NCBI GenBank assembly: GCA_947485745.1 | Contig: CANKQY010000004.1 | Span: 9,337-73,336 of the forward strand | Source: Bacteroidota bacterium | Lineage (GTDB): Bacteria; Bacteroidota; Bacteroidia; UKL13-3 | Direction of reading: 5' to 3' | DNA length: 64,000 nt | Shown: positions 6,346 through 29,818 of the stretch, in pieces | Layout: each line of letters opens with the position of its first letter | How positions within the stretch are numbered: the stretch's first letter is position 1 | Made by a program: the position numbers and the translations under genes | Notes under the pieces: model-generated | Database searches by the model: none | What the model saw: only the letters and a program-made list of their open reading frames with translations | What the model was told of the DNA's origin: nothing

Positions 6346-6347
6346 CC

Positions 6348-8285: not shown

Positions 8286-8488
8286 TAACTATAAATAGTT
8301 GATAGGTTAAAATGCTAAACAAAGTTTAAGACCAAAGTAAAGCAAATTACCACCTTTGTTCAATCCAAGATAATTTAATGGAGGTAAGAAACGATTGAAA
8401 GAAAATACGCAATATCAAAAGCTATGGTGAAATACTAGAAATTTTAATTTAATTTGTTGAAATTAGCAATTAATAAGACCTACACAAT

Positions 8489-9415: not shown

Positions 9416-9423
9416 ATCATATC

Positions 9424-10005: not shown

Positions 10006-10073
10006 ACCTAATGTAAGCTCAAAATGCCTTTTTGCATTACTCTTTTCATAAACGTTGTATCTCGGTAAAATAA

Positions 10074-10865
10074 TTAAATCGCCAAATCCTTTACATGGCT
10101 AATTTTTGTAATAGAAACCTGACTATTTACCAATACTTTCACAAAATAATATCCTTGGCTCAATTGCGATATATTCAGGCTTATAACATCACCACCACTC
10201 TTAATTTCTTGTCCATTAAGTTGCATCACATTTACACCCAATATATCAAAAAGTTGAATACAAACAATTGTTGATTTTTTTAGGTTCAAACCAATATTTA
10301 GTTGGTTGCTTAAAGGATTAGGGTAAACAGTAATATCGGAAGGTGATAACTTTTCTTCTATACCGTTTGCGGCTAATGCACTTGAAATTGCATTACGAAG
10401 ATTGACTGCATTTAAACCATTGTCTTGCATAAATAATACAGAATGGGAAGCACCTGCTATCATAACAATTTTTGGCATTCCACTGCCCCCAAAATCAGAT
10501 TGTTTTACGCTTGTATTTGAAATAATAGGAACTCCCGAAATGGCATATTGATTTGCCCAACTGCTCAAAGAGGTACAATTCGTTCCTCCATCATCATCTG
10601 TTAAATAAAACAAAACCCTTCCAGGATTTGAAGTAGCAAAACTATTCACCACATCAATAGCACTTTTTGTAGGAGATACGCATGATCCACATGGGTGAAC
10701 CATAGACATAACAACTATTTTTCCGGCATCTAACTCAGTATATAAATGGCGATTAACACCACCACAATCTAACACATTAAAATCTACGGCAGTTTGCGAC
10801 CAACCTGAGCTTATAGAAATTAAAAGGAAAAATTGGAAGGTAAAAAAGTGATACATGTTTTTCAT
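10074..10865 (-). CDS. T9SS-sorted secreted protein with a thioredoxin-like CxxC region
   Basis: Signal peptide; VVMSMVHPCGSCVSPTKS (CxxC); C-terminal T9SS sorting domain (ITVYPNPLSNQLNIGLNL...GYYFVKVLV). Confidence 0.65.
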   Translation of the reverse strand: MKNMYHFFTFQFFLLISISSGWSQTAVDFNVLDCGGVNRHLYTELDAGKIVVMSMVHPCGSCVSPTKSAIDVVNSFATSNPGRVLFYLTDDDGGTNCTSLSSWANQYAISGVPIISNTSVKQSDFGGSGMPKIVMIAGASHSVLFMQDNGLNAVNLRNAISSALAANGIEEKLSPSDITVYPNPLSNQLNIGLNLKKSTIVCIQLFDILGVNVMQLNGQEIKSGGDVISLNISQLSQGYYFVKVLVNSQVSITKISHVKDLAI

Positions 10866-11203: not shown

Positions 11204-12718
11204 CTATTTTAAACTTTTCTTTTGATTACTTTGAAATTCTTGAAGGATTGTATTAATTCTTATTAACTTATTTTTGATAATAGGCTTGGCAATAGAACAA
11301 TGACCAAAAATTAAACCTTGCTCAGTGGAGTTATTAGTAAACGACTTATTAAAGGAATGAACACTAATATTATTTTTACTCAATAAACTTACAATTTCTT
11401 TGTCGACGATACTAGATTTAATCATAACCAAGGATTGAAGACTTAATGTGTCGCTATGAATGAGATTAAACCCAAATCCTTTTAAAATTTGATTGAATTG
11501 CTCCTCAAAAAACAACTTTCTCTCTTTGGTTATTGTTATTAAATTATCGAGGTGTACATGCAGTACTTTTTTTTCAATAAATTGGTTCAAAACGTATTGA
11601 ATTGAAGGAGAAACAAATCGATGGGAATGTTTCACCATTAACTCAAATGGTAGCCTTAAGTTATGTGGAACAATAATATAGCCTATTCTCAACGATGGGT
11701 GCAGGATGCGATTAAAGGTACCAAGGTAAATGGTCTTTTGCCGTTGGTCGAGGCTAAACAAGGAAGGTAGCTTATTGTCCCAATTATTGAGCTCATGTTC
11801 ATAATCATTTTCAATTATGTAGCTTTGGTTCTCCTCAGCATACTGCAATAAATCGAGCCTTCTATCCAAAGGCATTTTAACACCCATCGGATAATGACAA
11901 GAAGGGGTTACATGAATCAATTTAGATGCTAGTTTTGATTGTCGCATAAAATCAACACTTATCCCCTTTTTATCAATTGGAACTCCCAAAATATTTGCCA
12001 TTAATCCTTTAAAAACTGCATGAACATTAGGAAATGTTGGATTTTCAAGAATTACATTATCACGGGGATTTAACAAGATACTACTCAAAATAAACAAGGA
12101 TTGCATAGATCCCGAAACAATAAAAACTTGGCTTGGTTCACAATTAATATTTCTAGTGAGATTGAGATAATTTGAAATGTTTAATTTCAATTTTTCTAAA
12201 CCTGATGATGGCGAATACGATAAATTTGAAAACTCAACCTCCTTCCAATACATATTGGTTAAATTCTTCCATTGTGAAATTGGAAATATATCTAATGGAG
12301 GCAAACCCGGACTAAACGCTAAATTTTCGGCACTGTTCGAAACATTGAAATTACCTAAATCCAAAAACGATTTTCCAATCTCAGATAACTGTTGGTAATC
12401 AATTTCATTGCTTTGAGGAACTATAATTGGTCTAGGTGCAATTGGCTTTAATTGGTAACCAGAATTTCTTTTAGAAATAAGCAAACCATCTAAAACTAGA
12501 ATGTCATAGGCTTTTATAACCGTGCTTCTTGAAATGCCTAAAGCCTGAGCCAATGTTCTTGTTGGAGGCAATGTATAATTATCTGGAATCTCTGTTTTGA
12601 TAATCATTTTGTACAACATCTTGTAAACCTTGATATACAACTTTTCGCCCTTTGAGAGCTTTGAATTTACAACATTCTTGTTGTAGTCGTCCACAATTTT
12701 TTTTAGCAAAACCGACAT
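11204..12718 (-). CDS. MocR/GabR-type regulator (GntR winged helix fused to a PLP aminotransferase-like domain)
   Basis: N-terminal GntR helix-turn-helix (LPPTRTLAQALGISRSTVIKAYDILVLDGLL) followed by about 380 aa of fold-type I aminotransferase-like sequence. It is divergent from the 12825-22349 operon. Confidence 0.8.
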   Translation of the reverse strand: MSVLLKKIVDDYNKNVVNSKLSKGEKLYIKVYKMLYKMIIKTEIPDNYTLPPTRTLAQALGISRSTVIKAYDILVLDGLLISKRNSGYQLKPIAPRPIIVPQSNEIDYQQLSEIGKSFLDLGNFNVSNSAENLAFSPGLPPLDIFPISQWKNLTNMYWKEVEFSNLSYSPSSGLEKLKLNISNYLNLTRNINCEPSQVFIVSGSMQSLFILSSILLNPRDNVILENPTFPNVHAVFKGLMANILGVPIDKKGISVDFMRQSKLASKLIHVTPSCHYPMGVKMPLDRRLDLLQYAEENQSYIIENDYEHELNNWDNKLPSLFSLDQRQKTIYLGTFNRILHPSLRIGYIIVPHNLRLPFELMVKHSHRFVSPSIQYVLNQFIEKKVLHVHLDNLITITKERKLFFEEQFNQILKGFGFNLIHSDTLSLQSLVMIKSSIVDKEIVSLLSKNNISVHSFNKSFTNNSTEQGLIFGHCSIAKPIIKNKLIRINTILQEFQSNQKKSLK

Positions 12719-12751
12719 AATTGGTATTCTTTTAATTAAATAATTGGTATG
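12719..12751. promoter_or_regulatory. Direct repeat AATTGGTAT x2 (23-bp period), candidate MocR operator
   Basis: AATTGGTAT is at 12719-12727 and 12742-12750, directly abutting the MocR start codon. TGGTAT is the complement of the ATACCA box that I recall for B. subtilis GabR. Confidence 0.4.
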
Positions 12752-12824
12752 CCAAATATAGCTTTTTCAACTATTAATTTGAGGTAATATTTAGAACTTA
12801 TTTTAAAACTAAATTCATATTAAA

Positions 12825-14762
12825 ATGAAAAAACTTGTCATCCTATTCCTGTTGTCATTCATTTTTGGAGGAAATTTAAGGGCTCAACTTATTATCAATG
12901 AAGTTTTGTACGATCCATCAAACATAGGCTTAGCAGGAGATGCAAATGGAAATGGCGTTTATGGCCAAACTGAAGATGAATTCATTGAATTGTTAAACTA
13001 TGGAACCTCTAGCCTCAATGTAAGTGGATTTCAAATATGGGATGATACTTTAATAGGAACAATGGTATACAAAATTCCAATGGGTATTATCATCCCAGCA
13101 AATGGTGCTTTGGTAATTTTCGGTGGAGGAACTCCTGTGGGTGGTTTTGGTGGGGCAATAGTATTGGCTGATACTGGCGTTTCTGGTTTAAGTTTTGGTA
13201 ATACTTTAGAAAAAATTGCCATTAGAGATAGTTTAGGAAAAACCATATTATTTTTTGATTCGGATGCCCTTTCTAATAACCCAGACGAGTCTTATACCCG
13301 CTCCCCAGACTTTACCGGTGCATTTGTACAACATGCCTCACTAAACCCTCGCAAATTTTCGCCTGGTACAAAATTAGATGGTAGTCCGTTTTCAATAGGC
13401 TTGGCGAAACAAGTTACCTTTAAAGTAGACCTTAACAAATATCCAGGAAACTTTGATAGTGTATTTGTAAGTGGAATCTTTAATCAATATTGCAATAATT
13501 GCAATCCTATGTATGACAATAACCGAGATGGTTTATGGGAAATTACCATTCCTTTGTCTGTAGATTCTATTGAGTATTTATTCAAATTAAAATCTGGTAG
13601 TAACTACATTCAAGAAAATTTCGTTCTTGCCAACGCCTGCACTAAATCGAATGGCACAATAAATACACGTTACGGTATAATTAAAAAAGATAGCACATTG
13701 AATACTGTTTGTTTTGAATCGTGCACCAGTTGTTCTGGTAATTTGAGTTTAAAGGGAGTAACAGATTTTAAAACACCATTATTAGGTAATTCAGGTAAAT
13801 CCATTCATTTAGTAAACGATTCTATTATTCCAAACTTAAGTATTTATGGCTTGGGCGTGGCAAACAATGGAGGAGGAAGTGATGGCCAAGAATATAGGTT
13901 CCCAAGAATTTCGGTGCCAGCAGGTAACCATATTTTGGTAGTAAGGGATAGTGCTGGTATGGCTGCTTATTTGAGTAGCTGTTGGACCTCATTTAATTTG
14001 GTTTTGATTGACTCAATAGGAATAATTAACCAAAATGGAAATGATGCAGTTGAACTTTTTAAAGTAGGCGATATTGTTGAAACTTTTGGGGATGCTAACC
14101 AAGACGGACTAGGCAAACCATGGGAATATACGGGTTCATGGGCCTATAAAAATAATTCAGGTGTTTGGACCTATGGAGGAATTAATTGCACCGATAGTAG
14201 CACAACTACTTATAATTCTAAATGCATTTATCCAATATGCGCGGCTATTAAAATAAGTTCCATAATAGTGGAAGGAGAAGGAAACGTTTCAACTATAACT
14301 CAAAATGCAGGTACCTTAAAAATGATTGAAACTGTATTACCTGCTAATGCCGGCAACAAATCTATTTCTTGGTCGGTTGACAATACTAGCTTAGCCACTA
14401 TTAATACCTTTGGCATTTTAACTGCAAAGGCAAATGGCGAGGTAAATGTAAAAGCAACGGCTTTAGATGGCAGTGGCATATTTGGAACCAAGAAAATTAC
14501 CATAACAGGGCAGGCTAATTCAATTGCCGAATTGAATAAAGTTTCGGTTAAAATATATCCTAACCCAATTGAAAATATTTTATATATAGAATCTGTTGAA
14601 ACTATCAACGAATTCAAAATTTATTCTATTGATGGAAAACTAATCTTGAATGAAAAAGTTTCAAAAAATCAAATTAACCTGAGCGAGCTTTCTACTGGTG
14701 CATACTTTATTGAATTTAAAATAGATGAATATTTAAGTAGCTACAAGTTCATCAAAAACTAA
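12825..14762 (+). CDS. T9SS-sorted multidomain surface protein: lamin-tail domain (LTD), CBM-like module, second LTD-like module, Big_2, C-terminal sorting domain
   Basis: LTD signature LIINEVLYDPSN...GDANGNGVYGQTEDEFIELLN...ESYTRSPD...KFSPGTK. Big_2-like ITQNAGTLKMIETVLPANAGNKSISWSV. T9SS CTD VKIYPNPIENILYIES...GAYFIEF. Confidence 0.7.
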   Translation: MKKLVILFLLSFIFGGNLRAQLIINEVLYDPSNIGLAGDANGNGVYGQTEDEFIELLNYGTSSLNVSGFQIWDDTLIGTMVYKIPMGIIIPANGALVIFGGGTPVGGFGGAIVLADTGVSGLSFGNTLEKIAIRDSLGKTILFFDSDALSNNPDESYTRSPDFTGAFVQHASLNPRKFSPGTKLDGSPFSIGLAKQVTFKVDLNKYPGNFDSVFVSGIFNQYCNNCNPMYDNNRDGLWEITIPLSVDSIEYLFKLKSGSNYIQENFVLANACTKSNGTINTRYGIIKKDSTLNTVCFESCTSCSGNLSLKGVTDFKTPLLGNSGKSIHLVNDSIIPNLSIYGLGVANNGGGSDGQEYRFPRISVPAGNHILVVRDSAGMAAYLSSCWTSFNLVLIDSIGIINQNGNDAVELFKVGDIVETFGDANQDGLGKPWEYTGSWAYKNNSGVWTYGGINCTDSSTTTYNSKCIYPICAAIKISSIIVEGEGNVSTITQNAGTLKMIETVLPANAGNKSISWSVDNTSLATINTFGILTAKANGEVNVKATALDGSGIFGTKKITITGQANSIAELNKVSVKIYPNPIENILYIESVETINEFKIYSIDGKLILNEKVSKNQINLSELSTGAYFIEFKIDEYLSSYKFIKN

Positions 14763-14782
14763 AGATTCACAAACAAAATATC

Positions 14783-15742
14783 ATGAAAATATATAACCTA
14801 ATTTTACCCGCCATTGTAATCGGAATGCTTGTTGGTGCTTGTAAAACAGATGATGTTAAACCTAAAGTAATTCCAAATACAGGAAGCTTGGTTACTTTAT
14901 CAGTCGACAATTCAAGCATTTCTGAAAGCGGAGGTTCAGCCCAAATTTCTGTAACTCTTTCACAGGTAACCAATATTGATGTAACAGTAAAATTTGCCTA
15001 TGCTGGTACTGCAACCCTAAACACTGATTACAGCTCAAATTTAAGTATCACAATACCTGCAGGAAGTGTTTCCAATTCCTCTACTCTACTTGCTAATCAA
15101 GACACCCTAAAAGAAGGTAACGAAATTATTAAAATTACCATTGATTCTATTATAAACGGAATTGAAGATGGCAATCAATCTATTGAAATAACCATTGAAG
15201 ATGATGATGTTCCTGCAACCGCAAATATTATTTTAAATGAAATCTTGTACGACCCATCCAATACGGCTTTAGAGGGAGATGCAAATGGCGATGGCGTATA
15301 TGCCCAAGCCGCAGATGAGTTTATTGAATTGATAAACAATTCGAATGCGGCAATTGATTTAAGCGGTTTTAAAGTTTTTGACGCTGGTGGTTTAAGCTCA
15401 GGAACTCCTAACCATACCATACCAAGCGGAACTATATTACAACCCAAAAAAGCATTGGTTATTTTTGGAGGAGGAAACCCAACTGGTACTTTTGGTGGTG
15501 CTTTGGTTCAAAAATCTACTTCTGGCGATTTAAACCTAAACAATGCTGGTGACATTTTAACCATTCAAGATAGCTCGGGCTATGTGGTGATATCATACGA
15601 CATCACCCCTCTATCAGATAACCCAAATGAGTCATATACCCGAAGCCCTGATATCACCGGAGGCTTTGAGCAACATAGTAAAGTAACTACTACCAAATTC
15701 TCCCCTGGAACAAAATCTGATGCGGCGGCTAGTCCGTTTTAA
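14783..15742 (+). CDS. Lipoprotein with a Calx-beta-like module and a lamin-tail domain
   Basis: Lipobox IGMLVGAC. Calx-beta-like ISESGGSAQISVTLSQVTNIDVTVKFAYAGTATLNTDY. The LTD is paralogous to the previous gene (ILNEILYDPSNTALEGDANGDGVYAQAADEFIELIN...ESYTRSPD...KFSPGTK). Confidence 0.65.
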   Translation: MKIYNLILPAIVIGMLVGACKTDDVKPKVIPNTGSLVTLSVDNSSISESGGSAQISVTLSQVTNIDVTVKFAYAGTATLNTDYSSNLSITIPAGSVSNSSTLLANQDTLKEGNEIIKITIDSIINGIEDGNQSIEITIEDDDVPATANIILNEILYDPSNTALEGDANGDGVYAQAADEFIELINNSNAAIDLSGFKVFDAGGLSSGTPNHTIPSGTILQPKKALVIFGGGNPTGTFGGALVQKSTSGDLNLNNAGDILTIQDSSGYVVISYDITPLSDNPNESYTRSPDITGGFEQHSKVTTTKFSPGTKSDAAASPF

Positions 15743-15756
15743 TTAATAACTTCAAT

Positions 15757-17133
15757 ATGATACAATATTTAGGTTTAATCATCTCTATTGGGGTAATTGC
15801 AATTGTTGCTAGATTATTATTAAAAGAGTATTTCCCACAAACAGTATTGCTCATTGCAGGAATTGCTTTGCTATTATTATCAAGCAGTGTAAATAACAAT
15901 GTAACTCCTCAAGGACAAGTAACTGAAAAGGGCCTATTCAAAATCCTAGATTACATTATAAATCAATTTTCAAATACCAATGCTGGTGTTGGATTAATGA
16001 TCATGACCATTGGTGGTTTTGTGGCTTACATGGATAAAATTGGTGCCTCGGAAGCCTTGGTTAGAGTAGCATTAAAACCCTTAGGTATTTTGAAAAAGTA
16101 TCCAAATTTTGCAGCTGTGGCAATTATTCCCATTGGGCAACTCATTTTTATTTGCGTGCCTTCTGCCGCAGGTTTTGGATTGTTATTAATGGCTTCCGTT
16201 TTCCCTATTCTTGTAAATTTAGGGGTAAGCAGACTTGCAGCGGTTTCTATCATTACAGGTTGTACCTCTTTTTGTATTGGTCCCTCATCGGTGATTACAG
16301 CCTCGGCTGTTCAAATTGCTCAAATTGAAACATTGCCCTATTTTCTTTACTCCCAAATTCCTATTGCCATTATCTTAAATGTGGTTTTAATGGTTTCCTA
16401 TTTTTTTGTTAACAGGTACTACAATGAGAAAGACAAGTTAATGCCAATAGTTGTAAAGAGTATTGAGAAAACTAGTAATGAAGCGCATTGGATCTATGCC
16501 TTACTGCCTATTTTACCCTTGATTTTGCTTCTCTCCTTTTCTGGAGTCTTTACTTTGTTTCCTATTAAATTAAAAGTTGAAACAACCACAGCCATGCTAT
16601 TTAGTTTGTTTGTAGGTATGCTCTTTGAACTCATAAGAACAAAAAACATAAAAGCAGTATTTTCTTCTTTCAAAGTATTTTTAGATGGTATGGGTGATAT
16701 CTTTAAATCGGTTGTAACCCTAATTATTGTTGCAGAGATTTTTGCGAACGGATTAATCTCCATGGGCTTTATGGACGGACTAATTTCAATTTCTCAAAAC
16801 ATAGGCTTTGGTGCAGTTGGGATTGGTATTATCATGACTATTATGATTTTCTTAGCTGCCTTATTAATGGGTAGTGGCAATGCAGCATTTTTTGCATTTG
16901 GTCCGCTTATCCCAAATGTGGCTGCAAAATTTGGTGTTCCAAGTACATCCATATTATTACCAATGAACTTATCTGCTTCTATGGGAAGGGCTATTAGTCC
17001 TATTGCAGGAGTTTTAATTGCCACTGCAAATGTTGCAGGTGTGCCCGTAATGGAAATTGTAAAAAGAAACTTGATTCCAGTTCTTTCTGTTTTAATTACC
17101 TTACTAATTTATCATTTTGGATTATGCTTTTAA
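15757..17133 (+). CDS. DcuC-family (C4-dicarboxylate anaerobic carrier-like) transporter
   Basis: 458 aa with about 12 hydrophobic helices. Its length and general pattern resemble DcuC/YfcC-type carriers. Confidence 0.55.
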   Translation: MIQYLGLIISIGVIAIVARLLLKEYFPQTVLLIAGIALLLLSSSVNNNVTPQGQVTEKGLFKILDYIINQFSNTNAGVGLMIMTIGGFVAYMDKIGASEALVRVALKPLGILKKYPNFAAVAIIPIGQLIFICVPSAAGFGLLLMASVFPILVNLGVSRLAAVSIITGCTSFCIGPSSVITASAVQIAQIETLPYFLYSQIPIAIILNVVLMVSYFFVNRYYNEKDKLMPIVVKSIEKTSNEAHWIYALLPILPLILLLSFSGVFTLFPIKLKVETTTAMLFSLFVGMLFELIRTKNIKAVFSSFKVFLDGMGDIFKSVVTLIIVAEIFANGLISMGFMDGLISISQNIGFGAVGIGIIMTIMIFLAALLMGSGNAAFFAFGPLIPNVAAKFGVPSTSILLPMNLSASMGRAISPIAGVLIATANVAGVPVMEIVKRNLIPVLSVLITLLIYHFGLCF

Positions 17134-18263
17134 TTAAAAACGCAAGTGTTTATGCGCCTAATTTTCTGGGAAAGAAAGATATTCTTACTGGAGCAGGAAA
17201 AATTTTAGCAATAGAGGATGCTATTTTTCAGCCAACTTCTGATTGTATAATTTGGGATGCCAATGAAAAAATAGTTACACCGGGCTTTATCGACCAGCAT
17301 ATCCATATTATTGGTGCTGGTGGAAAACATGGCTTTGGATCAATGACGCCTGAAATCAATTTATCTAGCCTCATTGCTTGCGGCTCAACTACAGTAGTTG
17401 GATTGCTAGGTACTGATGGAGCATCAAGAAGTATCAAGAGTTTATATGCTAAAACAAAGGCACTCGAGAGTGAAGGAATTACTGCCTATATGTTCACTGG
17501 CTATTATGGTTTAGATCCTGTTCATATAACAGGCTCGGTTCAAGACGACATGATTTTTATTGAACCTGTTTTAGGTTGTAAAATTGCCATTAGTGATTTT
17601 AGGTCGTCATATGCTACCGAACTTGATTTGTTAAGAATTTTAAGACAAGTTAAAGTTGGGGGAATGATTGCCAATAAAAAGGGAATTTTACATATTCATT
17701 TAGGCAATCAAAAAATTAAAATGGACATTCTTTTTAAATTGGTGAACGAACATGAATTTCCAATAGCAAATATCTCTCCTACTCATGTAGGAAGAACCAA
17801 GGAGCTTTTTGAACAGGCAATTGAATTTGCCAAACTAGGCGGAATGATAGATTTAACAACTGGCGCATCCAAATATACTGAGCCCTACAAATCTGTTCTG
17901 TATGCCTTAGAAAAAGGTGTATCAATAGACAAAATGACTTTTAGTAGTGATGGAAATGCTGGGCTTGATAAACTTGATGAAAATGGGAATTTAATTGGGT
18001 TCAGAAGAGCCGTGATTGACCAAAATTACTTGCAAGTTAAGGAGCTAATTAATACCAAAGATGTTAAAATTGAAGATGCTATTAAGCTGATAACAAAAAA
18101 TCCTGCAACCAATTTAGGACTAAAAAATAAAGGTATTATTGCTGTAGGTACCGATGCCGATTTCTGCTGCCTAGACCAGGATTTTAATTTAACCGATGTG
18201 TTTGCCAAAGGCAAGCAAATGATGAATGACTCACAAGTTATTGTTAAAGGCCATTTTGAATAA
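17124..18263 (+). CDS. iadA: Isoaspartyl (beta-aspartyl) dipeptidase
   Basis: It is collinear with E. coli IadA as I recall it: PGFIDQHIHIIGAGG, VVGLLGTDG, GCKIAISDFRSS, SPTHVGR, FSSDGNAG and GTDADF. It overlaps the transporter gene by 10 nt. Confidence 0.85.
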   Translation: MLLIKNASVYAPNFLGKKDILTGAGKILAIEDAIFQPTSDCIIWDANEKIVTPGFIDQHIHIIGAGGKHGFGSMTPEINLSSLIACGSTTVVGLLGTDGASRSIKSLYAKTKALESEGITAYMFTGYYGLDPVHITGSVQDDMIFIEPVLGCKIAISDFRSSYATELDLLRILRQVKVGGMIANKKGILHIHLGNQKIKMDILFKLVNEHEFPIANISPTHVGRTKELFEQAIEFAKLGGMIDLTTGASKYTEPYKSVLYALEKGVSIDKMTFSSDGNAGLDKLDENGNLIGFRRAVIDQNYLQVKELINTKDVKIEDAIKLITKNPATNLGLKNKGIIAVGTDADFCCLDQDFNLTDVFAKGKQMMNDSQVIVKGHFE

Positions 18264-18270
18264 CTCTATT

Positions 18271-19572
18271 ATGAATAAAAAATTACTCCTAATACTTTGT
18301 TTAATTTCTATAGGTTTTATAGGGGCTTCACAAAACCCTGTATTAAACAAATACACGTTTGGTGAAGGACTTAACTTCTCTGGAAACAATAAATCCCTTT
18401 ACACCTTAAGCGGATATATTCAACCTTCTATGGAAATTAAAAAATATGCCGCTGATTCAAACACCGACACCTACTACAGATTTAGAATGAGAAGGCTGCG
18501 TATTAGATTTGAGGGAGATTTGCCAAAGTATAAATTAGAATATAGGTTTCAGGTCGACCTTAGTGGAACAGCAGAAATTGGTGATGAAACAAGTTTAGCT
18601 TTATTTGATGCTTGGGTTTCCTATAATCCTTTACCAAACTTAAAAATAAAATTTGGCCAAACCTCTAACCAAACAGAAAACAGGGAGATGTTAATCAACT
18701 CCAATTATTTACAATTACCTGAAAGAAGCAGAGTAACTTCTGCATTTGCTGTTGCCAGAGAATTTGGCATATTTATTTCAACTGAGCACAAGGCAACCAA
18801 TAATTTAATTTTTAAACCTACGGTTTCTCTTACTAATGGAGATGGTCAAAATACATTCAAAAGAAATTATGGTGGCTTTAAATATGGAGGCAGACTAGAT
18901 ATTTTAACTTTTGGAAAATTTACCAATATGGGGCAATTTAGGGAAGCGGATATTGTGAGGGAGCGAACGCCTAAATTAGTAATTGGATTTACCTATAGTA
19001 TGAACAAAGGGGTAAGTAGCAGAAGAGGTGAAGCGGCTGGTGCCATTCTGTATCTTGATAGTGCACAAAACGAAAGTTTACCTGATTATTCAAAATTTGG
19101 AATCGATTTTTTATTTAAATACAGAGGTTTTAGTTTGTTGGGTGAATATGTTCAAAGTAAGGCTAACGTACCTTCTGCTATTACAACAAGGGTAAGAAAT
19201 GATGGAACAACCTCCAATAGCTTTTTAGTAAATGGAGTGCAAGATGTAGATAGTTATGTGAAGGGTAGAATGATGCTTGGAAAAGGTTATAACATTCAAG
19301 CGGGTTATATTCTTAAAAACCAAGTATCTATTGATGCCCGATATACCCACTTAGATGCAGATAAAAATTCATTTATGAATAACCCAATTTATTACAATAG
19401 ACCTAATTATTATACTTTGGGCTTATCAAAATACATTAGCAGAGGTTATGGTTTTAAAATTCAAGCCTCGCTTACTTATGCAGAATTGGCCCCTGGTAGC
19501 CTGGATATATTTGGCAGCGCAATAAATAACAATGAATGGATTGGAAACATTATGGCAACAATTTCATTTTAA
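18271..19572 (+). CDS. OprO/OprP-like (phosphate/anion-selective type) outer-membrane porin
   Basis: The signal peptide starts at the internal MNKKLLLILCLISIGFIGASQ (ATG 18271). LRIRFEGD, FDAWVSYNPLPNLKIKFGQ and a terminal aromatic (ATISF) fit this family. Confidence 0.6.
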   Translation: MNKKLLLILCLISIGFIGASQNPVLNKYTFGEGLNFSGNNKSLYTLSGYIQPSMEIKKYAADSNTDTYYRFRMRRLRIRFEGDLPKYKLEYRFQVDLSGTAEIGDETSLALFDAWVSYNPLPNLKIKFGQTSNQTENREMLINSNYLQLPERSRVTSAFAVAREFGIFISTEHKATNNLIFKPTVSLTNGDGQNTFKRNYGGFKYGGRLDILTFGKFTNMGQFREADIVRERTPKLVIGFTYSMNKGVSSRRGEAAGAILYLDSAQNESLPDYSKFGIDFLFKYRGFSLLGEYVQSKANVPSAITTRVRNDGTTSNSFLVNGVQDVDSYVKGRMMLGKGYNIQAGYILKNQVSIDARYTHLDADKNSFMNNPIYYNRPNYYTLGLSKYISRGYGFKIQASLTYAELAPGSLDIFGSAINNNEWIGNIMATISF

Positions 19573-19579
19573 CTCCAAT

Positions 19580-21121
19580 ATGAAAAATTACCTATTCATT
19601 ATTTTCAGTTTGGTGTTAATGAGCTTTATCCAAGACTTTAACCCACAACCAAAAGCAATAACTGCTAAGTACTTTCCAGAGGTAGAAATTGAAATCAATA
19701 CTCCGGCTTTTAAGAAAGAAAAAGGATTCACTAATCATGAAGAACTTATTCAATTTTTAAATGCCCTTAAATCAAAACACTCAGATTTGGTGACCATTCA
19801 ATACATTGGTGAAAGTCAAAAAGGGAAAGCTATTCCAATGGTAACCCTTAACAAGAAAAGCAATGAAAACAAGTTGAAAGTTTGGTTCCAAGCGGGGCTA
19901 CATGGCGATGAAATGGCTAGTACCGAAGGCATTTTGTACTTATTAGATAGAATGTTAAATGATTCAAATTATACGTATTTATTGAATAGAATTGAATTAA
20001 CCATTATTCCGATGGCCAATATTGATGGGTACGAAAAACAAAACAGGTATGCTGCTAACGGACTTGATTTAAACAGGGATCAAACCAAATTATTGGTTAA
20101 AGAAAGCGTCATTTTAAAACAAGCTTTTAGTAATTACAATCCAGATGTTGGAGTTGATTTTCATGAATATAGACCATTTAGAAAAGAATATTCCCAATTA
20201 AGCACACTTGGAGTAGCATCGAGGTATGATGTAATGTTTATGAGTTCTGGCAATCTAAATGTTCCCGAAAAATTAAGGAAATTTACAAATGAAAAGTTTG
20301 TTAGAAATGCTGAATTAGAACTTGAAAAAGTTGGGATAACACAAAGGGAATATATTACCTCAGAAAAAGATTTAGGCGACATCCATTTTAATCAAGGATC
20401 CCTAAGTGCCAGGTCTAGTGCTACCTCCTACGCATTGGCAAATACAGTTTCTAGTTTAATAGAAATTAGAGGTGTTGGCTTGGGAAGAACCTCTTTTAAG
20501 CGTAGAATTTATTCTACATTTTTAGTGGGAATTTCCTATTTAAAAACAGCTTATGAAAATGTAAATGAAGTCAAAAATGTTTTAAAGTTTGATCCTAACG
20601 AAAATCAATTGGCATATATTAAATGTAAAAAAGAAATTTCGGTTCAGCCCTTAAAATTTATTGATGTAGAAACTACCAATGAAATTAATATTGAGGTAGA
20701 GATTAGAAACGCCTCCAAATCTACTCCTGTTTTAACAAGAGCCAGACCTATTGCTTATCTCATTGATCCCAATCAAAATATAATTATAGAAAAATTAAAA
20801 ATCCTAGGAATTTCACTTGAAAACCTAGCTAACAATAGAAATATTGAGGTAGAATACTACTCCATTAAAGAAGTAAGTGAGGATGAAGAAATGGAGGAAG
20901 GAGTATACCAACAAAAAATTAAAGCCGACGTACAAACTAAAACAATGAATTTTGAGAAGGGAACATTTATTGTATACCTATCTCAAGAAAATGCAAATTT
21001 AGCCATTGAGGTTCTAGAACCAGATGCACCAAATAGCTTTGTAAATTTTGGTGTTTTACCAGCAAATAAAGATGCTATTCTTCCAATCTATAGATATTTA
21101 AAAAATGAAAAATTATACTAG
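19580..21121 (+). CDS. Secreted M14-family zinc carboxypeptidase
   Basis: Signal peptide from MKNYLFIIFSLVLMSF (ATG 19580). Zinc and substrate motifs WFQAGLHGDEMASTEG, GLDLNRDQ and VDFHEY. Confidence 0.75.
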   Translation: MKNYLFIIFSLVLMSFIQDFNPQPKAITAKYFPEVEIEINTPAFKKEKGFTNHEELIQFLNALKSKHSDLVTIQYIGESQKGKAIPMVTLNKKSNENKLKVWFQAGLHGDEMASTEGILYLLDRMLNDSNYTYLLNRIELTIIPMANIDGYEKQNRYAANGLDLNRDQTKLLVKESVILKQAFSNYNPDVGVDFHEYRPFRKEYSQLSTLGVASRYDVMFMSSGNLNVPEKLRKFTNEKFVRNAELELEKVGITQREYITSEKDLGDIHFNQGSLSARSSATSYALANTVSSLIEIRGVGLGRTSFKRRIYSTFLVGISYLKTAYENVNEVKNVLKFDPNENQLAYIKCKKEISVQPLKFIDVETTNEINIEVEIRNASKSTPVLTRARPIAYLIDPNQNIIIEKLKILGISLENLANNRNIEVEYYSIKEVSEDEEMEEGVYQQKIKADVQTKTMNFEKGTFIVYLSQENANLAIEVLEPDAPNSFVNFGVLPANKDAILPIYRYLKNEKLY

Positions 21122-22349
21122 TTTAAAACACATGGTTACAGCTGCAGTATTGCTGTTTGCAATTAACCTAAATGCCCAAGACTCTACTTATACAAGGAGT
21201 AAAAGCTCTGTGCCGTCATTTGAAATGGGACAAGGACTTAATTTTAAATTTAACAATGGTGACTATCAATTTAAGATTGGCGGAATGATTCAACCATTTG
21301 TAGGTTATCAAAAAGATTCAAGCAACGATCCTAACTATTATTTAAACTCAAGACGTACCTTTTTTAATTTTGGAGGTAAAGCCGTAAAGGAGAAAATAGC
21401 TTTTTTGGTTCAAACCGATTTTAGCCTAGTTACTCCCCTGCTTGATGCGTGGGTTTCTTATGCACCTATTGAAAATTTAAAATTTACATTTGGCCAACAA
21501 TTAACCTTTACCAACAATAAAGAAATGGCTATTATGGAGCCACAATTGCAGTTTATTGATAGGAGTTTATTGAGCACACAATACAGCTCCTTGGGAAGGG
21601 AATTTGGTTTATTTGTAGCATCAAATTTTAATCTTGGAAATATTTTATTTGTTCCTCAAGCTGCTATTACCTCTGGTGATGGGAGAAACTCATTTGGCTT
21701 AAATGGCTTGGATTATGACATAGGCGGACTTAAGTATGGTGGAAGGTTAGATATTTATCCTTTTGGTAATTTTAGTGAGGGAAACAATATGCAGATTGCC
21801 GACATTAAAAAAGAAAACAAACCTAAATTAGCATTAGGTGTTGCAGGTAGTTATAACAAAGGCGCAAGTGAAAGTAACGGTGAAGGTCATGGCACTTTTT
21901 TGGTTTATGATAGCAAAGGCAAAAATCAATTACCTGATTATAGAAAATTATATTACGATGTATTATTCAAATACAATGGATTTTCATTTTTAAGCGAATA
22001 TGCCATTGCCACTGCAAAGGTTATGGAAGGCACCTATTTTGATGAAACGGCAATAGACGAATTGAAACCCACAGAAATTAGTCAGTTATTAGCTTTAGGA
22101 AATGGAATTAATACGCAATTAGGCTATGTATTCAATAAAAAATATGGTATAGATTTTCGTTATGCCGCAGTTGCACCCGAGTTTAAATCTAACAACAATT
22201 CTATAGTTAAGGATAGAAATGAAATTACCTTAGGACTTACCAAATATGTAAACGAAAACAACATAAAAATCAATGCAGCTATTACACAAATAAATTATGA
22301 TTCTAAATCATCGGTATTAGGCACCTTTTATGTTCAAATAATATTCTAA
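21105..22349 (+). CDS. Second OprO/OprP-like porin (paralog of 18271-19572)
   Basis: It shares LDAWVSYAPIENLKFTFGQ, GDGRNSF and LKYGGRLDIYPFG with the first porin. It overlaps the M14 gene by 17 nt. Confidence 0.6.
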   Translation: MKNYTSLKHMVTAAVLLFAINLNAQDSTYTRSKSSVPSFEMGQGLNFKFNNGDYQFKIGGMIQPFVGYQKDSSNDPNYYLNSRRTFFNFGGKAVKEKIAFLVQTDFSLVTPLLDAWVSYAPIENLKFTFGQQLTFTNNKEMAIMEPQLQFIDRSLLSTQYSSLGREFGLFVASNFNLGNILFVPQAAITSGDGRNSFGLNGLDYDIGGLKYGGRLDIYPFGNFSEGNNMQIADIKKENKPKLALGVAGSYNKGASESNGEGHGTFLVYDSKGKNQLPDYRKLYYDVLFKYNGFSFLSEYAIATAKVMEGTYFDETAIDELKPTEISQLLALGNGINTQLGYVFNKKYGIDFRYAAVAPEFKSNNNSIVKDRNEITLGLTKYVNENNIKINAAITQINYDSKSSVLGTFYVQIIF

Positions 22350-22393
22350 GCAAATATTTTTCGGTTTGAACCAATCGGCCGTGGATGAAGCAT

Positions 22394-22429
22394 AAAAAAA
22401 CCGACTAGCAAATGCTAGCCGGTTTTTTT
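22394..22429. terminator. Bidirectional intrinsic terminator between convergent operons
   Basis: AAAAAAACCGACTAGC-AAAT-GCTAGCCGGTTTTTTT: a 9-bp stem with one mismatch, flanked by an A-run and a T-run. Confidence 0.75.
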
Positions 22430-22445
22430 ATACCTAATAAATAGA

Positions 22446-23756
22446 TTAATTAGTCTTTATAATTCTCTTAGTTGAGATGGTTTCTCCTTGGTATACTTTA
22501 ATAAAATATATTCCATTTAACAACTCATTTGCGTTAAGAGTAGCTGAGTTACTGTTAATAGTTTCAGTTAAAACTACTTTACCCATTAAATCAACTATTT
22601 CAGCCTTTTGAATAGTACTTTCAGAACTCAATTGAATGATGTTATTGAAAGGATTTGGAGTTAAAACTGCATCGGTTATTTGATTTGTAGTTGCAATAAC
22701 TGAAGAATATTCAGAGTTGCCATCAAAATCAACTTGCTTTAATCTGTAAAATGCAGATTCATCGCTATTGAATTCAAACTTGTAGTTACGAGCTGTGTTA
22801 GAATTTCCTGCCCCTTTCACAAATCCAATATTTTCAAAATTCTCTCCATCAATACTTCTTTCTATTTCAAATCCGCTGTTGTTTAATTCTGAGGATGTAT
22901 TCCAAGCCAATGTGGTTGACTGAGTGGCTGCATTGATATGCGCGCTAAAATCACCCAATTTAACAGGCAAAACACCATTTGCCCAAGAGTTTGAAATTCT
23001 GATTCCATCAATGGTTCCAGCCATTGTACTACCACTTGTATGTTGTCTGATAGCGATAGCATTAAGAACAGCTAAATCTCCAGCAGAAACATCAGTTACA
23101 ACTAAATTTGGAACAGATGGTTCAACAGCTGGAACACCGCTAGTAAATACATAACCATAAATAGTATCAAGCAAAGTTGGGTGAAAACTATATTTAATAA
23201 CTACCAAAACTGGCGTATTTAATGGGTAATCGGCCGTTGTGTATGGAGCTGTTGAAGTTGCTGATTTACCTAAACCAATTTTAAAAGTATTTGCTAAACT
23301 TCCGTCTTTAATAAAAACCCTGCCCCTAAAAGCAGTCATAAAACTGGTATCCATTAGGTGGAAGAAATAGGAATCAGAAGAACCTACACCACCACTTGCC
23401 GACATGCTTAATAAAAACGAAACATATACGCTGCCCGAATTATAAGCAATTGTGGATCTATTAATGTCTTGACCATTGCTTGGTGAAAAAGTAAAACCAG
23501 CAGAACCTCCAATGCCTGAAGAGGAATAACCAGTATAGGTTAAAGAGGTACTTTTATAAGTAACTTGTCCAGTTGAACCACTGTGTTTTCTCCACCTTGC
23601 ATTACCTAATGCTGGATTTCCACCAAAAATTGTATTGGTTATGGTATCAGCTGCGGTGCCTGTAATGGTTCCATAGGAGAAATTCTCCATGGTAGTTTGC
23701 CCGTAAATTTGGGTCGAAAGAATAAAAACAACTAAGAGTAAAAGATTTTTTTTCAT
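22446..23756 (-). CDS. T9SS-sorted secreted protein of unknown function
   Basis: Signal peptide and a C-terminal sorting domain (LTPNPFNNIIQLSS...GIYFIKVYQ). It lies 34 nt downstream of the hydrolase gene, so it is probably co-transcribed. Confidence 0.6.
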   Translation of the reverse strand: MKKNLLLLVVFILSTQIYGQTTMENFSYGTITGTAADTITNTIFGGNPALGNARWRKHSGSTGQVTYKSTSLTYTGYSSSGIGGSAGFTFSPSNGQDINRSTIAYNSGSVYVSFLLSMSASGGVGSSDSYFFHLMDTSFMTAFRGRVFIKDGSLANTFKIGLGKSATSTAPYTTADYPLNTPVLVVIKYSFHPTLLDTIYGYVFTSGVPAVEPSVPNLVVTDVSAGDLAVLNAIAIRQHTSGSTMAGTIDGIRISNSWANGVLPVKLGDFSAHINAATQSTTLAWNTSSELNNSGFEIERSIDGENFENIGFVKGAGNSNTARNYKFEFNSDESAFYRLKQVDFDGNSEYSSVIATTNQITDAVLTPNPFNNIIQLSSESTIQKAEIVDLMGKVVLTETINSNSATLNANELLNGIYFIKVYQGETISTKRIIKTN

Positions 23757-23790
23757 GATTTGGTTTATTTTATTGTGTTATTTTATAATT

Positions 23791-24732
23791 TTATTGATAA
23801 AGTAAATTTACCCCAGCGGCTGAAGTAGCAGCAAAATCATGGGTAACATCCTTTAAGGAATAATATTTCCAATTATATGATCCCGCCATTTTTGTTGCTT
23901 TTTCTCTAGATTTTGAATAAAAATACTGAGCCCTTGTAAACCTATTTAATCCTTGCTTATCTACTATTTCATTGTGCCTTAAATCAGCTGAATTAGGGTC
24001 AGTATCCTTATCCCCTACAATAATAAAAATCTTTTTGTTAAATAGGTTATTGTAGCTTGAAAACTCGGCTGAACTCTTTTTTGTACCATATGGAAAGTCG
24101 ATGCTATTATCGAACATGGTGTACCAACCAGATGCAGCTGCAACAAGTTTATTGAGCTTAGCACTGGGCTTAAAAAGCAAATACCTGTGGGCAAATTGCC
24201 CACCTGCTGAATGACCAAAAATATCAAAACTGTTTACCGTACTACCAATTTTAACTTTCATAAAATTAAAAATTGGTTCAATTACAGAAAAGGTCCATAT
24301 TTCTTCATTTTTCATTGTACTTGTCGATGGATTATCCCCATCCACAAACATATTTCCTAAGTTATAACCATCCGCTCCTGGGTAATCTTGATCACTAAAC
24401 TCTGGTGCAATAATAATAAATTTGAGCCTATCCGAATGAGCTATAAGCAAATCTCGGCTGAATTTGGCATTCCTATCAGTGCCATGAAAAACAAATAAAA
24501 TTGGCGTTAATTTATTGGCATTTGCAGGTACATGGTAATAAATTTTTATGGGTTTATCCTTCAATGGCAGGTAATCTGTAAATACCACTTCAGAAGTTAT
24601 TTTGGCAATTGCAGCACTATCAATAGGATTAGCGTTTGTACCGTCTGTTTTCCCTTTGTGCTCCTTACATGAAATGATGAGGATGGAAAAAAGAACATGA
24701 AACATCAAATTAAGTCGGACTCTCCTATTCAT
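23791..24732 (-). CDS. Alpha/beta-fold serine hydrolase lipoprotein (PHB-depolymerase/esterase-like)
   Basis: Lipobox ILIISC, FVFHGTDRNA and the nucleophile elbow FGHSAGGQF (GxSxG). Confidence 0.6.
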   Translation of the reverse strand: MNRRVRLNLMFHVLFSILIISCKEHKGKTDGTNANPIDSAAIAKITSEVVFTDYLPLKDKPIKIYYHVPANANKLTPILFVFHGTDRNAKFSRDLLIAHSDRLKFIIIAPEFSDQDYPGADGYNLGNMFVDGDNPSTSTMKNEEIWTFSVIEPIFNFMKVKIGSTVNSFDIFGHSAGGQFAHRYLLFKPSAKLNKLVAAASGWYTMFDNSIDFPYGTKKSSAEFSSYNNLFNKKIFIIVGDKDTDPNSADLRHNEIVDKQGLNRFTRAQYFYSKSREKATKMAGSYNWKYYSLKDVTHDFAATSAAGVNLLYQ

Positions 24733-24761
24733 TATGTAAAAATAACCTATTGTGTATTTTG

Positions 24762-24800
24762 AATATACATACCAATATTAAATTAATATACATACCAATA
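24762..24800. promoter_or_regulatory. Direct repeat AATATACATACCAATA x2 (23-bp period) upstream of the hydrolase gene
   Basis: Copies at 24762-24777 and 24785-24800. Read in the sense of the minus-strand gene, the core is ATTGGTATG, the same core and spacing as at 12719-12751. Confidence 0.4.
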
Positions 24801-24943: not shown

Positions 24944-25678
24944 TTATTTACAAGTCCAAGTAAATACGTTTGAACTAACTTCTAAGTCCGTATTTGTGGT
25001 AATTTGCTTTATTACCTTTCCGTCTGCATCATACTCATAAGTATAAGAATCAAAGCTTCCACCATCATAAGTAGCTTTCTTTACTAAATTCTTATTGGCA
25101 TTCACAAATTCTTGAGCTTCCTCAGATTTTGCGGCATAATTCACCTTATCTGTATAATATTCATAGGTGGTTACAGATACATCAGTTCCATCGTCTTGTG
25201 TTTCTTTTACCCTGTTTCCATTAATATATTCAAAGGTTGTTGTAATTTCAAAGGTTGTTCCAAACACCTCTCCAGAAAAGAAACTTTCGATAACCTCACC
25301 ATTTAAATTGAATTTATTTACAGACCTAAATTCTGCTATTCCAGCAATAGATAAAAGTGCACTATCACCAAAACCTTTTGAATTTAAATAATACGTTTCA
25401 TTGGTTAATCCTCCATCTGAAACCAATACCTGACTACCGGTATAAGTGTAAGTCAAGTTTGTGTTAGAGGTATCAGTAGCATCAAAACTATTTGAGGTAG
25501 TTAACCTATTTTGTGCGTTATAAGTGTAATTTGAGTACGACCCATCACTTCCTTGGTCTTTGCTAAGCATACAAACCTTGGCGCTTGGTGTTGGAGAATT
25601 GCTGTTGTCTTTGTCTTTTTTACAAGCAGTGCCTGCCAAAAGTGTAAATCCTAAAAGGATAAGTGTAATTTTTTTCAT
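24944..25678 (-). CDS. Lipoprotein of unknown function
   Basis: Lipobox LLAGTAC. The protein is Thr/Tyr-rich with repetitive TYTY/YEY beta-strand motifs. I recognise no family. Confidence 0.5.
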   Translation of the reverse strand: MKKITLILLGFTLLAGTACKKDKDNSNSPTPSAKVCMLSKDQGSDGSYSNYTYNAQNRLTTSNSFDATDTSNTNLTYTYTGSQVLVSDGGLTNETYYLNSKGFGDSALLSIAGIAEFRSVNKFNLNGEVIESFFSGEVFGTTFEITTTFEYINGNRVKETQDDGTDVSVTTYEYYTDKVNYAAKSEEAQEFVNANKNLVKKATYDGGSFDSYTYEYDADGKVIKQITTNTDLEVSSNVFTWTCK

Positions 25679-25750
25679 GTGTTATTTTAAAGTTGATTCG
25701 ATATTTCAATTCGTATGCAAAAACATTTCTAAAGATTAATTATTTCGAAT

Positions 25751-28357: not shown

Positions 28358-28497
28358 TCAGTATGTTAAATTAATATTTCTGCTTCTATGTGGAATAACT
28401 TATTTTCGCTTTCTTTTGCAATTAAGATAAAAAAGAAAAATAATACCCTAATTGTCTACAAATAGAATGATTTTGGGGAATAGAAAAAAGCAAAACC

Positions 28498-29460: not shown

Positions 29461-29474
29461 TATAATTCATCATT

Positions 29475-29810: not shown

Positions 29811-29818
29811 AAAAACAT

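Follow-up and report, generated by a model that had tools for sequence, protein, structure and literature searches.

The 64,000-nucleotide (nt) window analysed here, the whole of a stretch of contig CANKQY010000004.1 from a Bacteroidota bacterium (assembly GCA_947485745.1), carries a locus in which genes for a serine hydrolase related to the polyaspartate hydrolase PahZ1, a beta-aspartyl dipeptidase (IadA), a metallocarboxypeptidase and two putative outer-membrane porins lie together with a gene for a MocR-type regulator. This locus is probably a system for the utilisation of a beta-aspartyl polyamide or peptide under MocR control. That reading is built on the homologies of the encoded proteins, the conserved synteny of their genes, an operator common to two promoters and the predicted protein locations. 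The features of the locus are given below; domains were assigned by scanning the window proteins with Pfam and NCBIfam models (aa, amino acids; T9SS, type IX secretion system).

11204-12718, minus strand: mocR, MocR/GabR-type regulator (PF00392 GntR winged helix-turn-helix and PF00155 class-I aminotransferase fold, Aminotran_1_2), divergent from the seven-gene operon
12720-12750, plus strand: operator 1, ATTGGTAT-N15-ATTGGTAT, exact; 75-105 nt ahead of the ATG of the operon and directly adjoining the start codon of mocR
12825-22349, plus strand: seven-gene operon, tightly packed
12825-14762, plus strand: T9SS-secreted LTD protein, 645 aa (Pfam LTD, Big_2 and Por_Secre_tail C-terminal domain)
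14783-15742, plus strand: surface-type lipoprotein, 319 aa, N-terminal Calx-beta-like region and C-terminal LTD (E 6e-16)
15757-17133, plus strand: DcuC-family inner-membrane carrier (PF03606, E 3e-77; NF037994, 359 bits against a cut-off of 100)
17124-18263, plus strand: IadA, beta-aspartyl (isoaspartyl) dipeptidase (TIGR01975 equivalog)
18271-19572, plus strand: putative outer-membrane porin 1, distant Porin_O_P (OprP/OprO) relative (orthologs over the PF07396 threshold; C-terminal Phe)
19580-21121, plus strand: probably periplasmic M14 metallocarboxypeptidase with a C-terminal beta-sandwich domain (PF00246, E 5e-24)
21105-22349, plus strand: putative outer-membrane porin 2, paralog of porin 1 (36% identity; same blastp cluster; ends in Phe)
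22392-22431, either strand: intrinsic terminator, predicted bidirectional, a hairpin with flanking A7 and T7, common to the converging units
22446-23756, minus strand: T9SS cargo protein, 436 aa, an accessory locus member (Por_Secre_tail as sole Pfam match), first in position of the converging two-gene unit on the ORF (open reading frame) map
23791-24732, minus strand: PahZ1-like serine hydrolase lipoprotein, the other gene of that unit (GHSAG motif; lipobox Cys22; PDB and Foldseek matches)
24769-24799, minus strand: operator 2, ATTGGTAT-N15-ATTGGTAT, exact; 37-67 nt upstream of the hydrolase ATG

The hydrolase, its neighbourhood and its operator

In a phmmer comparison with PDB sequences, the hydrolase matches the PahZ1 enzymes of Sphingomonas sp. 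KT-1 (6ve6, E 3e-50) and Pedobacter sp. KP-2 (9o7u, E 8e-50), followed by LpqC (E 2e-32) and by no further significant PDB match. The AlphaFold model (mean predicted local distance difference test [pLDDT] score 82) gives the same ranking: Foldseek ranks 1-3 in the PDB are taken by 9o7u and 6ve6 (template modelling [TM] scores 0.93 and 0.90), LpqC follows (TM 0.80, E about 1e-25), and siderophore, feruloyl and other esterases (E about 1e-13) come about 12 orders of magnitude after LpqC. A first-pass annotation of this DNA had suggested a relationship to PahZ1 and named carbohydrate and feruloyl esterases as the grouping that would speak against it; the relationship is confirmed by both searches, with the PahZ1 structures first and the esterases far behind. 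Residues S175, D243, H298 and R264 of the hydrolase align to S157, D225, H280 and R246 of the KT-1 enzyme, of which the first three form the catalytic triad and R246 is a substrate-positioning specificity residue (PMC13017698). The triad and R264 are invariant across 14 aligned orthologs.

The orthologs have a lipobox Cys followed by acidic residues, which resembles the surface-export signal of Bacteroidota, or (in the relatives L034 and L035) a T9SS C-terminal domain instead, and either arrangement would place the hydrolase outside the cell. We propose that it acts as a cell-surface endo-depolymerase of beta-aspartyl amide bonds. All six of the PahZ1 homologs that have been assayed degrade polyaspartate, including pairs that are only 35-41% identical (PMC13017698); it is therefore reasonable, albeit short of proof, to carry polyaspartate-cleaving activity over to the window enzyme.

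A total of 84 PahZ1-like loci were fetched, anchored on the hydrolase, and their ORFs were compared by tblastn and blastp clustering. The arrangement porin-M14-porin is found beside the hydrolase in 37 of the 84, most of them from Bacteroidota and from lakes, the sea or the gut. Among the 35 loci with clustered ORFs, 24-25 have DcuC-IadA, 21 have LTD proteins and 11 have MocR in the fetched flanks. The locus is carried by freshwater Bacteroidia, Flavobacterium nackdongense (CP037933.1, 484.5-505.5 kb), Winogradskyella, Polaribacter, Formosa, Lacinutrix, Flaviramulus, Vicingaceae, Cryomorphaceae and Chitinophaga, as well as by gut Bacteroidales (Butyricimonas, Phocaeicola, Rikenellaceae) and one Myxococcota-type metagenome-assembled genome (MAG) rich in guanine and cytosine. 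Among its culturable carriers are F. nackdongense and Flavobacteria bacterium BAL38 (L013). The gene set proposed in the first-pass annotation is thus a conserved neighbourhood. Gene order and strand vary among lineages, so the association has survived repeated rearrangement; in Bacteroidales and in Lacinutrix/Formosa, DcuC-IadA-porin-M14-porin-PahZ1 form one co-directional string. The locus is modular, with DcuC and IadA jointly missing in about nine loci. Apart from DASS and SDF carriers, no further family recurs in the 35 related loci.

These comparisons bear on the alternative that the hydrolase/T9SS unit adjoins the seven-gene operon by chance and has no functional connection with it. The two units do lie on opposite strands with a terminator between them, and characterised PahZ1 genes of other phyla lack these neighbours. 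However, the association outlasts rearrangement over at least six bacterial families, the genes run in one direction in Bacteroidales and several Flavobacteriaceae, and both units bear the same conserved operator; we find chance adjacency hardly credible.

The operator was first reported as a direct repeat common to both promoters, and this holds: ATTGGTAT-N15-ATTGGTAT is exact at each, in the same orientation relative to its own target gene, and a scan of the 64-kb window allowing up to 2 mismatches yields these two sites alone (0.18 expected). The repeat also recurs at the equivalent promoters of relatives. TTGGTA-N14-20-TTGGTA has 24 matches in 1.4 Mb of related loci, 21 of which have the identical 23-nt register (N17); about 0.3 sites with this spacing would be expected by chance, as estimated from base composition. 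Nearly all of the boxes in this register lie just upstream of a locus gene: PahZ1 in 12 loci (L001, L002, L003, L005, L006, L007, L012, L013, L015, L021, L026 and L033), the LTD operon in 5 loci (L007, L014, L020, L021 and L023) and the T9SS-cargo gene in F. nackdongense. By this phylogenetic footprint at both types of promoter, the hydrolase unit as well as the operon is linked to the divergent mocR gene, and the boxes are predicted to define one MocR regulon.

The regulator is of the MocR type and divergent from the operon, as annotated in the first pass (PF00392 with PF00155). The NCBIfam MocR, PdxR and GabR models match it over its full length, all below their equivalog cut-offs. It scores 315 bits on the PdxR equivalog model, for which the cut-off is 320, so an annotation pipeline might wrongly call it a pyridoxine regulator, although the genes that it is predicted to control here are the putative harvesting genes. 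Orthologs with 41-49% identity adjoin the locus in 15 of the fetched loci, and 11 of these cluster by blastp. A divergent MocR gene and direct repeats are likewise features of GabR/PdxR-type regulation, and the repeat contains ATACCA on its opposite strand, the core also of the Bacillus subtilis GabR site. What differs here is the 23-nt register and the set of targets, namely a putative polymer-harvesting operon and a second, unlinked promoter.

MocR regulators such as GabR and PdxR sense amine-bearing effectors through pyridoxal 5'-phosphate (PLP), which favours an amino-acid-based substrate over a polyester. The substrate might nevertheless be another omega-linked polyanion, either poly-gamma-glutamate or the polyester poly(beta-L-malate). 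A Brevifollis protein joins a PahZ1 domain to a CapA-like poly-gamma-glutamate module (PMC13017698). PahZ1 falls within the polyhydroxybutyrate-depolymerase/LpqC esterase lineage, and PGA_cap genes are found about 5 kb from KP-2-type PahZ1 genes. Moreover, the carriers found across the loci (DcuC, SDF and DASS) all transport C4-dicarboxylates such as malate. Malate, however, has no amine for a MocR regulator to sense, IadA fits the beta-aspartyl-peptidase equivalog model, a carboxypeptidase and a dipeptidase would be superfluous for a polyester, and no gamma-glutamyl-specific enzyme (GGT or PgdS) recurs in the loci. Such a substrate is, in our view, highly improbable.

Uptake and processing

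The identification of IadA in the first-pass annotation is borne out by a score of 401.7 bits on TIGR01975 over residues 2-379 (equivalog cut-off 331.25). KP-2 PahZ1 cleaves beta-tri-Asp and not beta-Asp-Asp (PMC4456602), so that dimers are its end products; since beta-Asp-Asp belongs to the substrate class of IadA, the PahZ1 and IadA steps would connect. IadA lacks a signal peptide and is therefore assigned to the cytoplasm. The upstream dcuC gene overlaps iadA by 10 nt; it is directly upstream of iadA wherever both are called, and the two genes are co-present or co-absent in all but two loci. Given a cytoplasmic IadA and this gene coupling, the DcuC-type carrier is more likely to be an importer of beta-Asp dipeptides than an aspartate carrier. 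Of the earlier assignment, then, the family stands (359 bits on NF037994) and the cargo, aspartate, gives way to the dipeptide as the likelier one. An SDF symporter (PF00375) is present in five loci and a DASS/Na_sulph_symp carrier (PF00939) directly follows PahZ1 in eleven marine loci, so that three carboxylate carrier families, DcuC, SDF and DASS, have been recruited across the loci.

The M14 protein scores 86 bits on PF00246 (threshold 21.6). The features looked for in this protein were the HxxE...H zinc ligands, the N-R carboxylate clamp, the catalytic Glu and the M14 fold, and all are present: H108-x-x-E111, N165-R166, H195 and E295 are invariant in 30 sequences (R156 is likewise invariant), and the AlphaFold model (pLDDT 88) has an M14 fold for which every top Foldseek match is an M14 enzyme. 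It is distant from every solved M14 enzyme (TM about 0.6), and hidden Markov model alignments to solved carboxypeptidases cover its N-terminal half only. With a type-I (SpI) signal peptide and no T9SS C-terminal domain, it is probably periplasmic. The secreted M14 carboxypeptidase of the first-pass annotation is thus supported by domain score, signal peptide and modelled fold alike. We propose that it is an exo-acting trimmer of oligo-aspartate. Roughly 17 residues ahead of the catalytic Glu there is an invariant Arg (R278), by its place in the sequence close to the CPA-255 specificity position; a tie between R278 and specificity for C-terminal Asp or Glu is a lead only.

IadA and the carboxypeptidase also invite a comparison with cyanophycin, or multi-L-arginyl-poly-L-aspartate. 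In a scavenging pathway of this kind, the PahZ1-like enzyme or M14 would replace the S51 cyanophycinase, and beta-Asp-Arg would be imported and split by IadA. IadA is a promiscuous beta-Asp dipeptidase and the final enzyme of cyanophycin breakdown, and loci combining cyanophycinase, IadA and a transporter are described in Bacteroidetes (Ben Hania et al. 2017, as cited in PMC10206079). Like a C-terminal residue, the Arg on the side chains of cyanophycin exposes a free alpha-carboxylate, and among PDB entries M14 is matched best by a carboxypeptidase B. M14 also has a weak match to the AstE/AspA catalytic domain, the group that includes cyanophycin dipeptide hydrolases (PMC10206079), and one related contig (L006) was binned with a picocyanobacterial culture. 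Nevertheless, a scan of the locus and of 20 ORFs in its flanks (784-10865 and 24944-43023) finds no S51 cyanophycinase within about 15 kb in the window; and neither this enzyme, SusC/D, an arginine or basic-amino-acid transporter nor an arginine-catabolic gene recurs in the related loci. The recruited carriers and porins are all of anion or carboxylate type, and the locus also occurs in gut Bacteroidales. Finally, characterised PahZ1s cut the beta-Asp-Asp bonds of a polyanion, whereas cyanophycin is net neutral with an alpha-linked backbone. We therefore regard cyanophycin scavenging as improbable, and the transport genes as pointing to an anionic substrate.

The anion-type assignment of the porins is the weakest part of this scheme. 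Orthologs of porin 1 in L002 (69% identical) and L004 (32% identical) reach 31-34 bits on PF07396, for which the gathering score is 20.9; these matches cover only the first approximately 120 of the 370 model positions. The porin 2 ortholog in L002 scores 16 bits, below threshold, and in all Porin_O_P matches are obtained for 7 of 25 members of the porin family. Porin 1 is basic (isoelectric point [pI] 9.4, net charge +12), and a conserved RFRxRRxRLR strand is seen in the porin alignment; these would be indirect signs at most of anion selectivity by a ladder of basic residues. No TonB_dep_Rec, Plug or SusD domain is found in the locus genes of the window or of L001-L004. The earlier idea that porins take the place of SusC/SusD is consequently upheld as far as SusC and SusD are concerned, and its porin part is backed indirectly, through some of the orthologs.

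The two LTD proteins, to which the first-pass annotation gave the task of surface capture, are candidates only for that role. The LTD lipoprotein is very acidic (net charge -22, pI 4.1), and lipoproteins of this family have a common Cys-x-T-D-D lipobox context. Its LTD domain was confirmed, and the Calx-beta domain named in the first-pass annotation was not recovered in the domain scan of the window protein; Calx-beta is matched by 14 of 19 orthologs and TSP_3 by 6 of 19. In about ten marine loci, the LTD lipoprotein is preceded by a second, larger LTD protein. The 436-aa protein beside the hydrolase has the C-terminal sorting domain of a T9SS cargo, as had been annotated, and an N-terminal region of about 340 aa without a Pfam match. 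Orthologs of it are found after PahZ1 in Chitinophaga and the closest freshwater clade alone; a weak match occurs in F. nackdongense, whose T9SS-cargo gene carries its own MocR box.

A proposed pathway and the points against it

We infer each catalytic and transport step of the pathway, as well as the substrate, from these protein assignments. The substrate would be a polyanionic polyamide or peptide with the chemistry of polyaspartate, having tracts rich in beta-Asp-Asp bonds. The PahZ1-like surface lipoprotein (or T9SS cargo, in some relatives) would cut the beta-amide bonds of the polymer to yield short oligomers, possibly assisted by the T9SS, LTD and Calx-beta proteins, and the two Porin_O_P-type porins would let these anionic oligomers into the periplasm. 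There, M14 would trim them from the C-terminus and release aspartate, as a counterpart of the M28 enzyme PahZ2 in Sphingomonas. Beta-Asp-X dimers resistant to PahZ1 would be imported by the DcuC-type carrier, whose gene appears translationally coupled to iadA, and split by IadA in the cytoplasm; free aspartate would enter through carboxylate symporters, with SDF, DASS or other carriers in this role. MocR would bind the ATTGGTAT-N15-ATTGGTAT boxes at both promoters, its PLP domain probably sensing a substrate-derived amino compound.

Several observations weigh against this pathway. Sequence identity of the window hydrolase to the KT-1 and KP-2 PahZ1s is no higher than 35% and 32%, respectively, and a neighbour-joining tree puts the locus-associated enzymes in clades apart from the characterised PahZ1s. 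It is thus a sister-clade relative of these enzymes and not an ortholog: the kinship claimed in the first pass extends to the family (fold, triad and Arg) and stops there. The hydrolase orthologs are mostly acidic (median pI 4.8; the mature window enzyme has a pI of 8.9), a basic protein surface is stressed for characterised PahZ1, and the LTD proteins have a pI of about 4. A polyanion is therefore unlikely to be captured by simple electrostatics, and binding by the acidic LTD proteins, with their Ca-binding modules, would need Ca2+; that Calx-beta/TSP3 modules bind a polyanion via Ca2+ bridges is speculation. The genomic context of PahZ1 outside this locus is also different: KP-2-type and KT-1-type genes occur in unrelated neighbourhoods, gammaproteobacterial homologs (L017, L019 and L038) are nested in a flavobacterial clade and lack the locus, and the one in L038 has a GH10 xylanase gene 284 nt downstream of it. 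With respect to the porins, neither window protein matches Porin_O_P (PF07396) even at E up to 10, so the OprP-like label given in the first pass applies through the orthologs of porin 1 and not to the window proteins themselves; against PDB sequences, the profile of the porin family retrieves no chain and a single-sequence search retrieves noise only. Lastly, we know of no natural beta-polyaspartate.

With a hydrolase outside the clade of characterised PahZ1s, the same genes can also be read as a salvage system, in which DcuC, IadA, M14 and the porins recover small isoaspartyl or acidic peptides from aged protein and the PahZ1-like protein, instead of depolymerising a polymer, acts as an esterase or peptidase on some other, accessory substrate. 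The promiscuity of IadA enzymes as beta-Asp dipeptidases (PMC10206079) would fit, as would the breadth of habitats (lakes, sea and gut), which suits a ubiquitous substrate such as damaged protein, and the modularity indicated by the loss of DcuC-IadA from some loci and of LTD proteins from others. The hydrolase is, however, the most constant partner of porin-M14-porin and has a MocR box in common with the operon. It retains the PahZ1 fold and the PahZ1-specific Arg, and its surface or T9SS placement suits a substrate too big for porins. Salvage of small peptides alone accordingly seems unlikely to us.

For a beta-aspartyl polyamide or peptide system, the most plausible candidates for the natural source are spontaneously isomerised acidic proteins rich in Asp and Asn or an unrecognised beta-polyaspartate; cyanophycin, gamma-PGA (poly-gamma-glutamate) and polymalate are less likely. 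A wider version of this proposal is possible, although we hold it to be doubtful: beta-Asp polymers or tracts would be a widespread natural nutrient, lake, ocean and gut Bacteroidota would have dedicated porin-based harvesting independent of SusC/D, PahZ1 enzymes would be natural depolymerases, and acidic Calx-beta/TSP3/LTD proteins would capture the substrate via Ca2+. The nutrient could then come from proteins rich in Asp that have isomerised and racemised, for instance Ca-binding proteins of biominerals or matrices, or from an undiscovered microbial beta-polyaspartate.

The nearest known system is formed by PahZ1 and PahZ2 of Sphingomonas sp. KT-1, together with PahZ1 of Pedobacter sp. KP-2. 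The first-step enzyme belongs to the same family, with the GHSAG serine, Asp/His triad and specificity Arg, and the proposed logic is the same: an endo-depolymerase followed by a metallo-exopeptidase, yielding aspartate. In contrast to the periplasmic PahZ1, the window enzyme is a predicted surface lipoprotein, and the exopeptidase is M14 instead of M28. Furthermore, the known system consists of two isolated enzymes studied on a synthetic polymer, whereas here a predicted regulon includes porins, carriers, IadA, LTD proteins and MocR; no operon, neighbours, transporter, regulation or natural substrate is reported for PahZ1 in PMC13017698 or PMC4456602. The cyanophycin utilisation locus of Bacteroidetes, to the extent that it is described in PMC10206079, likewise represents scavenging of an Asp-based isopeptide in Bacteroidota ending in IadA with a transporter; compared with that description, the present locus has no S51 cyanophycinase, a PahZ1-like hydrolase and M14 in its place, and anion-type transport only. 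The logic of a SusC/SusD polysaccharide utilisation locus is also recognisable in the surface lipoproteins, extracellular depolymerase, outer-membrane oligomer import, periplasmic exo-enzymes, inner-membrane carrier and dedicated regulator. Here, however, two Porin_O_P-type diffusion porins are proposed and no SusC-like TonB-dependent transporter or SusD is present; the presumed substrate is a polyamide instead of a glycan, and a MocR regulator stands in place of a hybrid two-component system, SusR or extracytoplasmic function (ECF) sigma factor. The first-pass annotation knew of no described locus with this composition, and our full-text literature search likewise found no published description of it.

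PahZ1 enzymes attract study as a means of recycling polyaspartate, an industrial polymer. If the proposed pathway is correct, polyaspartate hydrolases so far known from the degradation of synthetic polymer would have a natural role. The locus offers a complete pathway that can be tested, a candidate counterpart of PahZ2 in Bacteroidota (M14), a candidate importer of beta-Asp dipeptides (the DcuC-type carrier) and a candidate inducible promoter/regulator pair. It would represent a Bacteroidota design for polymer utilisation in which putative anion porins replace SusC/D, and suggests that abundant aquatic and gut Bacteroidota actively mine isoaspartyl-rich, protease-resistant material, which is relevant to how aged protein within dissolved organic matter is turned over.

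Gene layout and other PahZ1 contexts

The ten ORFs are positioned exactly as in the first-pass annotation, and its domain calls (MocR, LTD, T9SS, DcuC, IadA, M14 and GHSAG hydrolase) are reproduced by Pfam and NCBIfam, with the OprP-like label of the window porins and the Calx-beta label of the lipoprotein as the parts not recovered directly. Its packing of seven plus-strand genes is reproduced by the ORF map, with intergenic gaps of 20, 14, -10, 7, 7 and -17 nt; these values assume ATG start codons at 18271 (porin 1) and 19580 (M14), both of which agree with the gene calls of a 94%-identical relative (433 and 513 aa). The strong terminator placed between the two units is likewise supported (hairpin folding energy -20.3 kcal/mol, z = -6.7), and the A- and T-runs on its two flanks would allow termination in both directions.

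When the same locus was sought around the clades of characterised PahZ1s, it was not found: KP-2-type genes instead adjoin M28/M61 or S46 peptidase genes and a tandem paralog. The closest long-contig relative of KP-2 PahZ1 (67% identity) is on L086 (6742-11889; GCA_045629525.1, Sphingobacteriales-type), where its gene directly follows those for M61 and M28 peptidases and is itself followed by a tandem PahZ1 paralog; PGA_cap and NlpC/P60 genes lie 4-6 kb downstream, as they do in L087. According to the 2026 PahZ1 paper (PMC13017698), no PahZ2 homolog is known in KP-2. The L086 M28 protein is a candidate PahZ2 counterpart, although no PahZ2 chain is among its matches and by sequence it is a generic aminopeptidase relative. 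On L085 (2487-5637), another KP-2-type PahZ1 gene (73% identity) and a Peptidase_S46 gene are convergent. S46 is the family of Asp/Glu-specific dipeptidyl-peptidases, and in this second, different pairing PahZ1 is joined by an exopeptidase that may favour acidic residues.

In the genomes of L046 and L036, the PahZ1 family is expanding and fusing with other domains. Three tandem PahZ1-domain proteins (511-566 aa) are encoded on L046 (5905-10813) and two (551 and 963 aa) on L036 (9125-13751). They have N-terminal extensions of about 250 aa or more without a Pfam match, and one has a T9SS C-terminal domain. These proteins had been considered as LTD-PahZ1 fusions that would provide 'Rosetta stone' evidence, an idea that was dropped because Pfam sees no LTD in the extensions. 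The PahZ1-like gene contexts of Erythrobacter, Luteimonas and Porticoccaceae are heterogeneous. The gammaproteobacterial homologs L017, L019 and L038 are SAR92, Porticoccaceae and Cellvibrionales MAGs with 41-45% identity to the window enzyme (anchor at approximately 10001 in L017 and L038), and their nested position may reflect horizontal transfer and a different use.

Two contigs with unexpected labels carry a Bacteroidota-type locus: L006 (labelled Vulcanococcus limneticus LL, a picocyanobacterium), which includes T9SS cargo genes, and L036 (labelled Comamonadaceae). Both are probably mis-binned contigs of co-occurring Bacteroidota, and L006 hints at life alongside cyanobacteria. The nearest relatives of the window itself are freshwater Bacteroidia MAGs and metagenome contigs, with 60-94% protein identity.

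The flanks of the locus in the window are made up of housekeeping genes (alanyl-tRNA synthetase, tryptophan dioxygenase, an M23 peptidase and glycogen genes). A small T9SS cargo protein (263 aa; 10074-10865, minus strand) is encoded 339 nt downstream of mocR on the same strand; it has no other recognisable domain and no MocR box nearby. Further away (38721-41914, plus strand) lie, in this order, a gene of the GCS2-type glutamate-cysteine ligase family, one resembling class-I glutamine amidotransferase genes and a 396-aa ORF without a Pfam match, a trio that could be a small cassette forming amide bonds.

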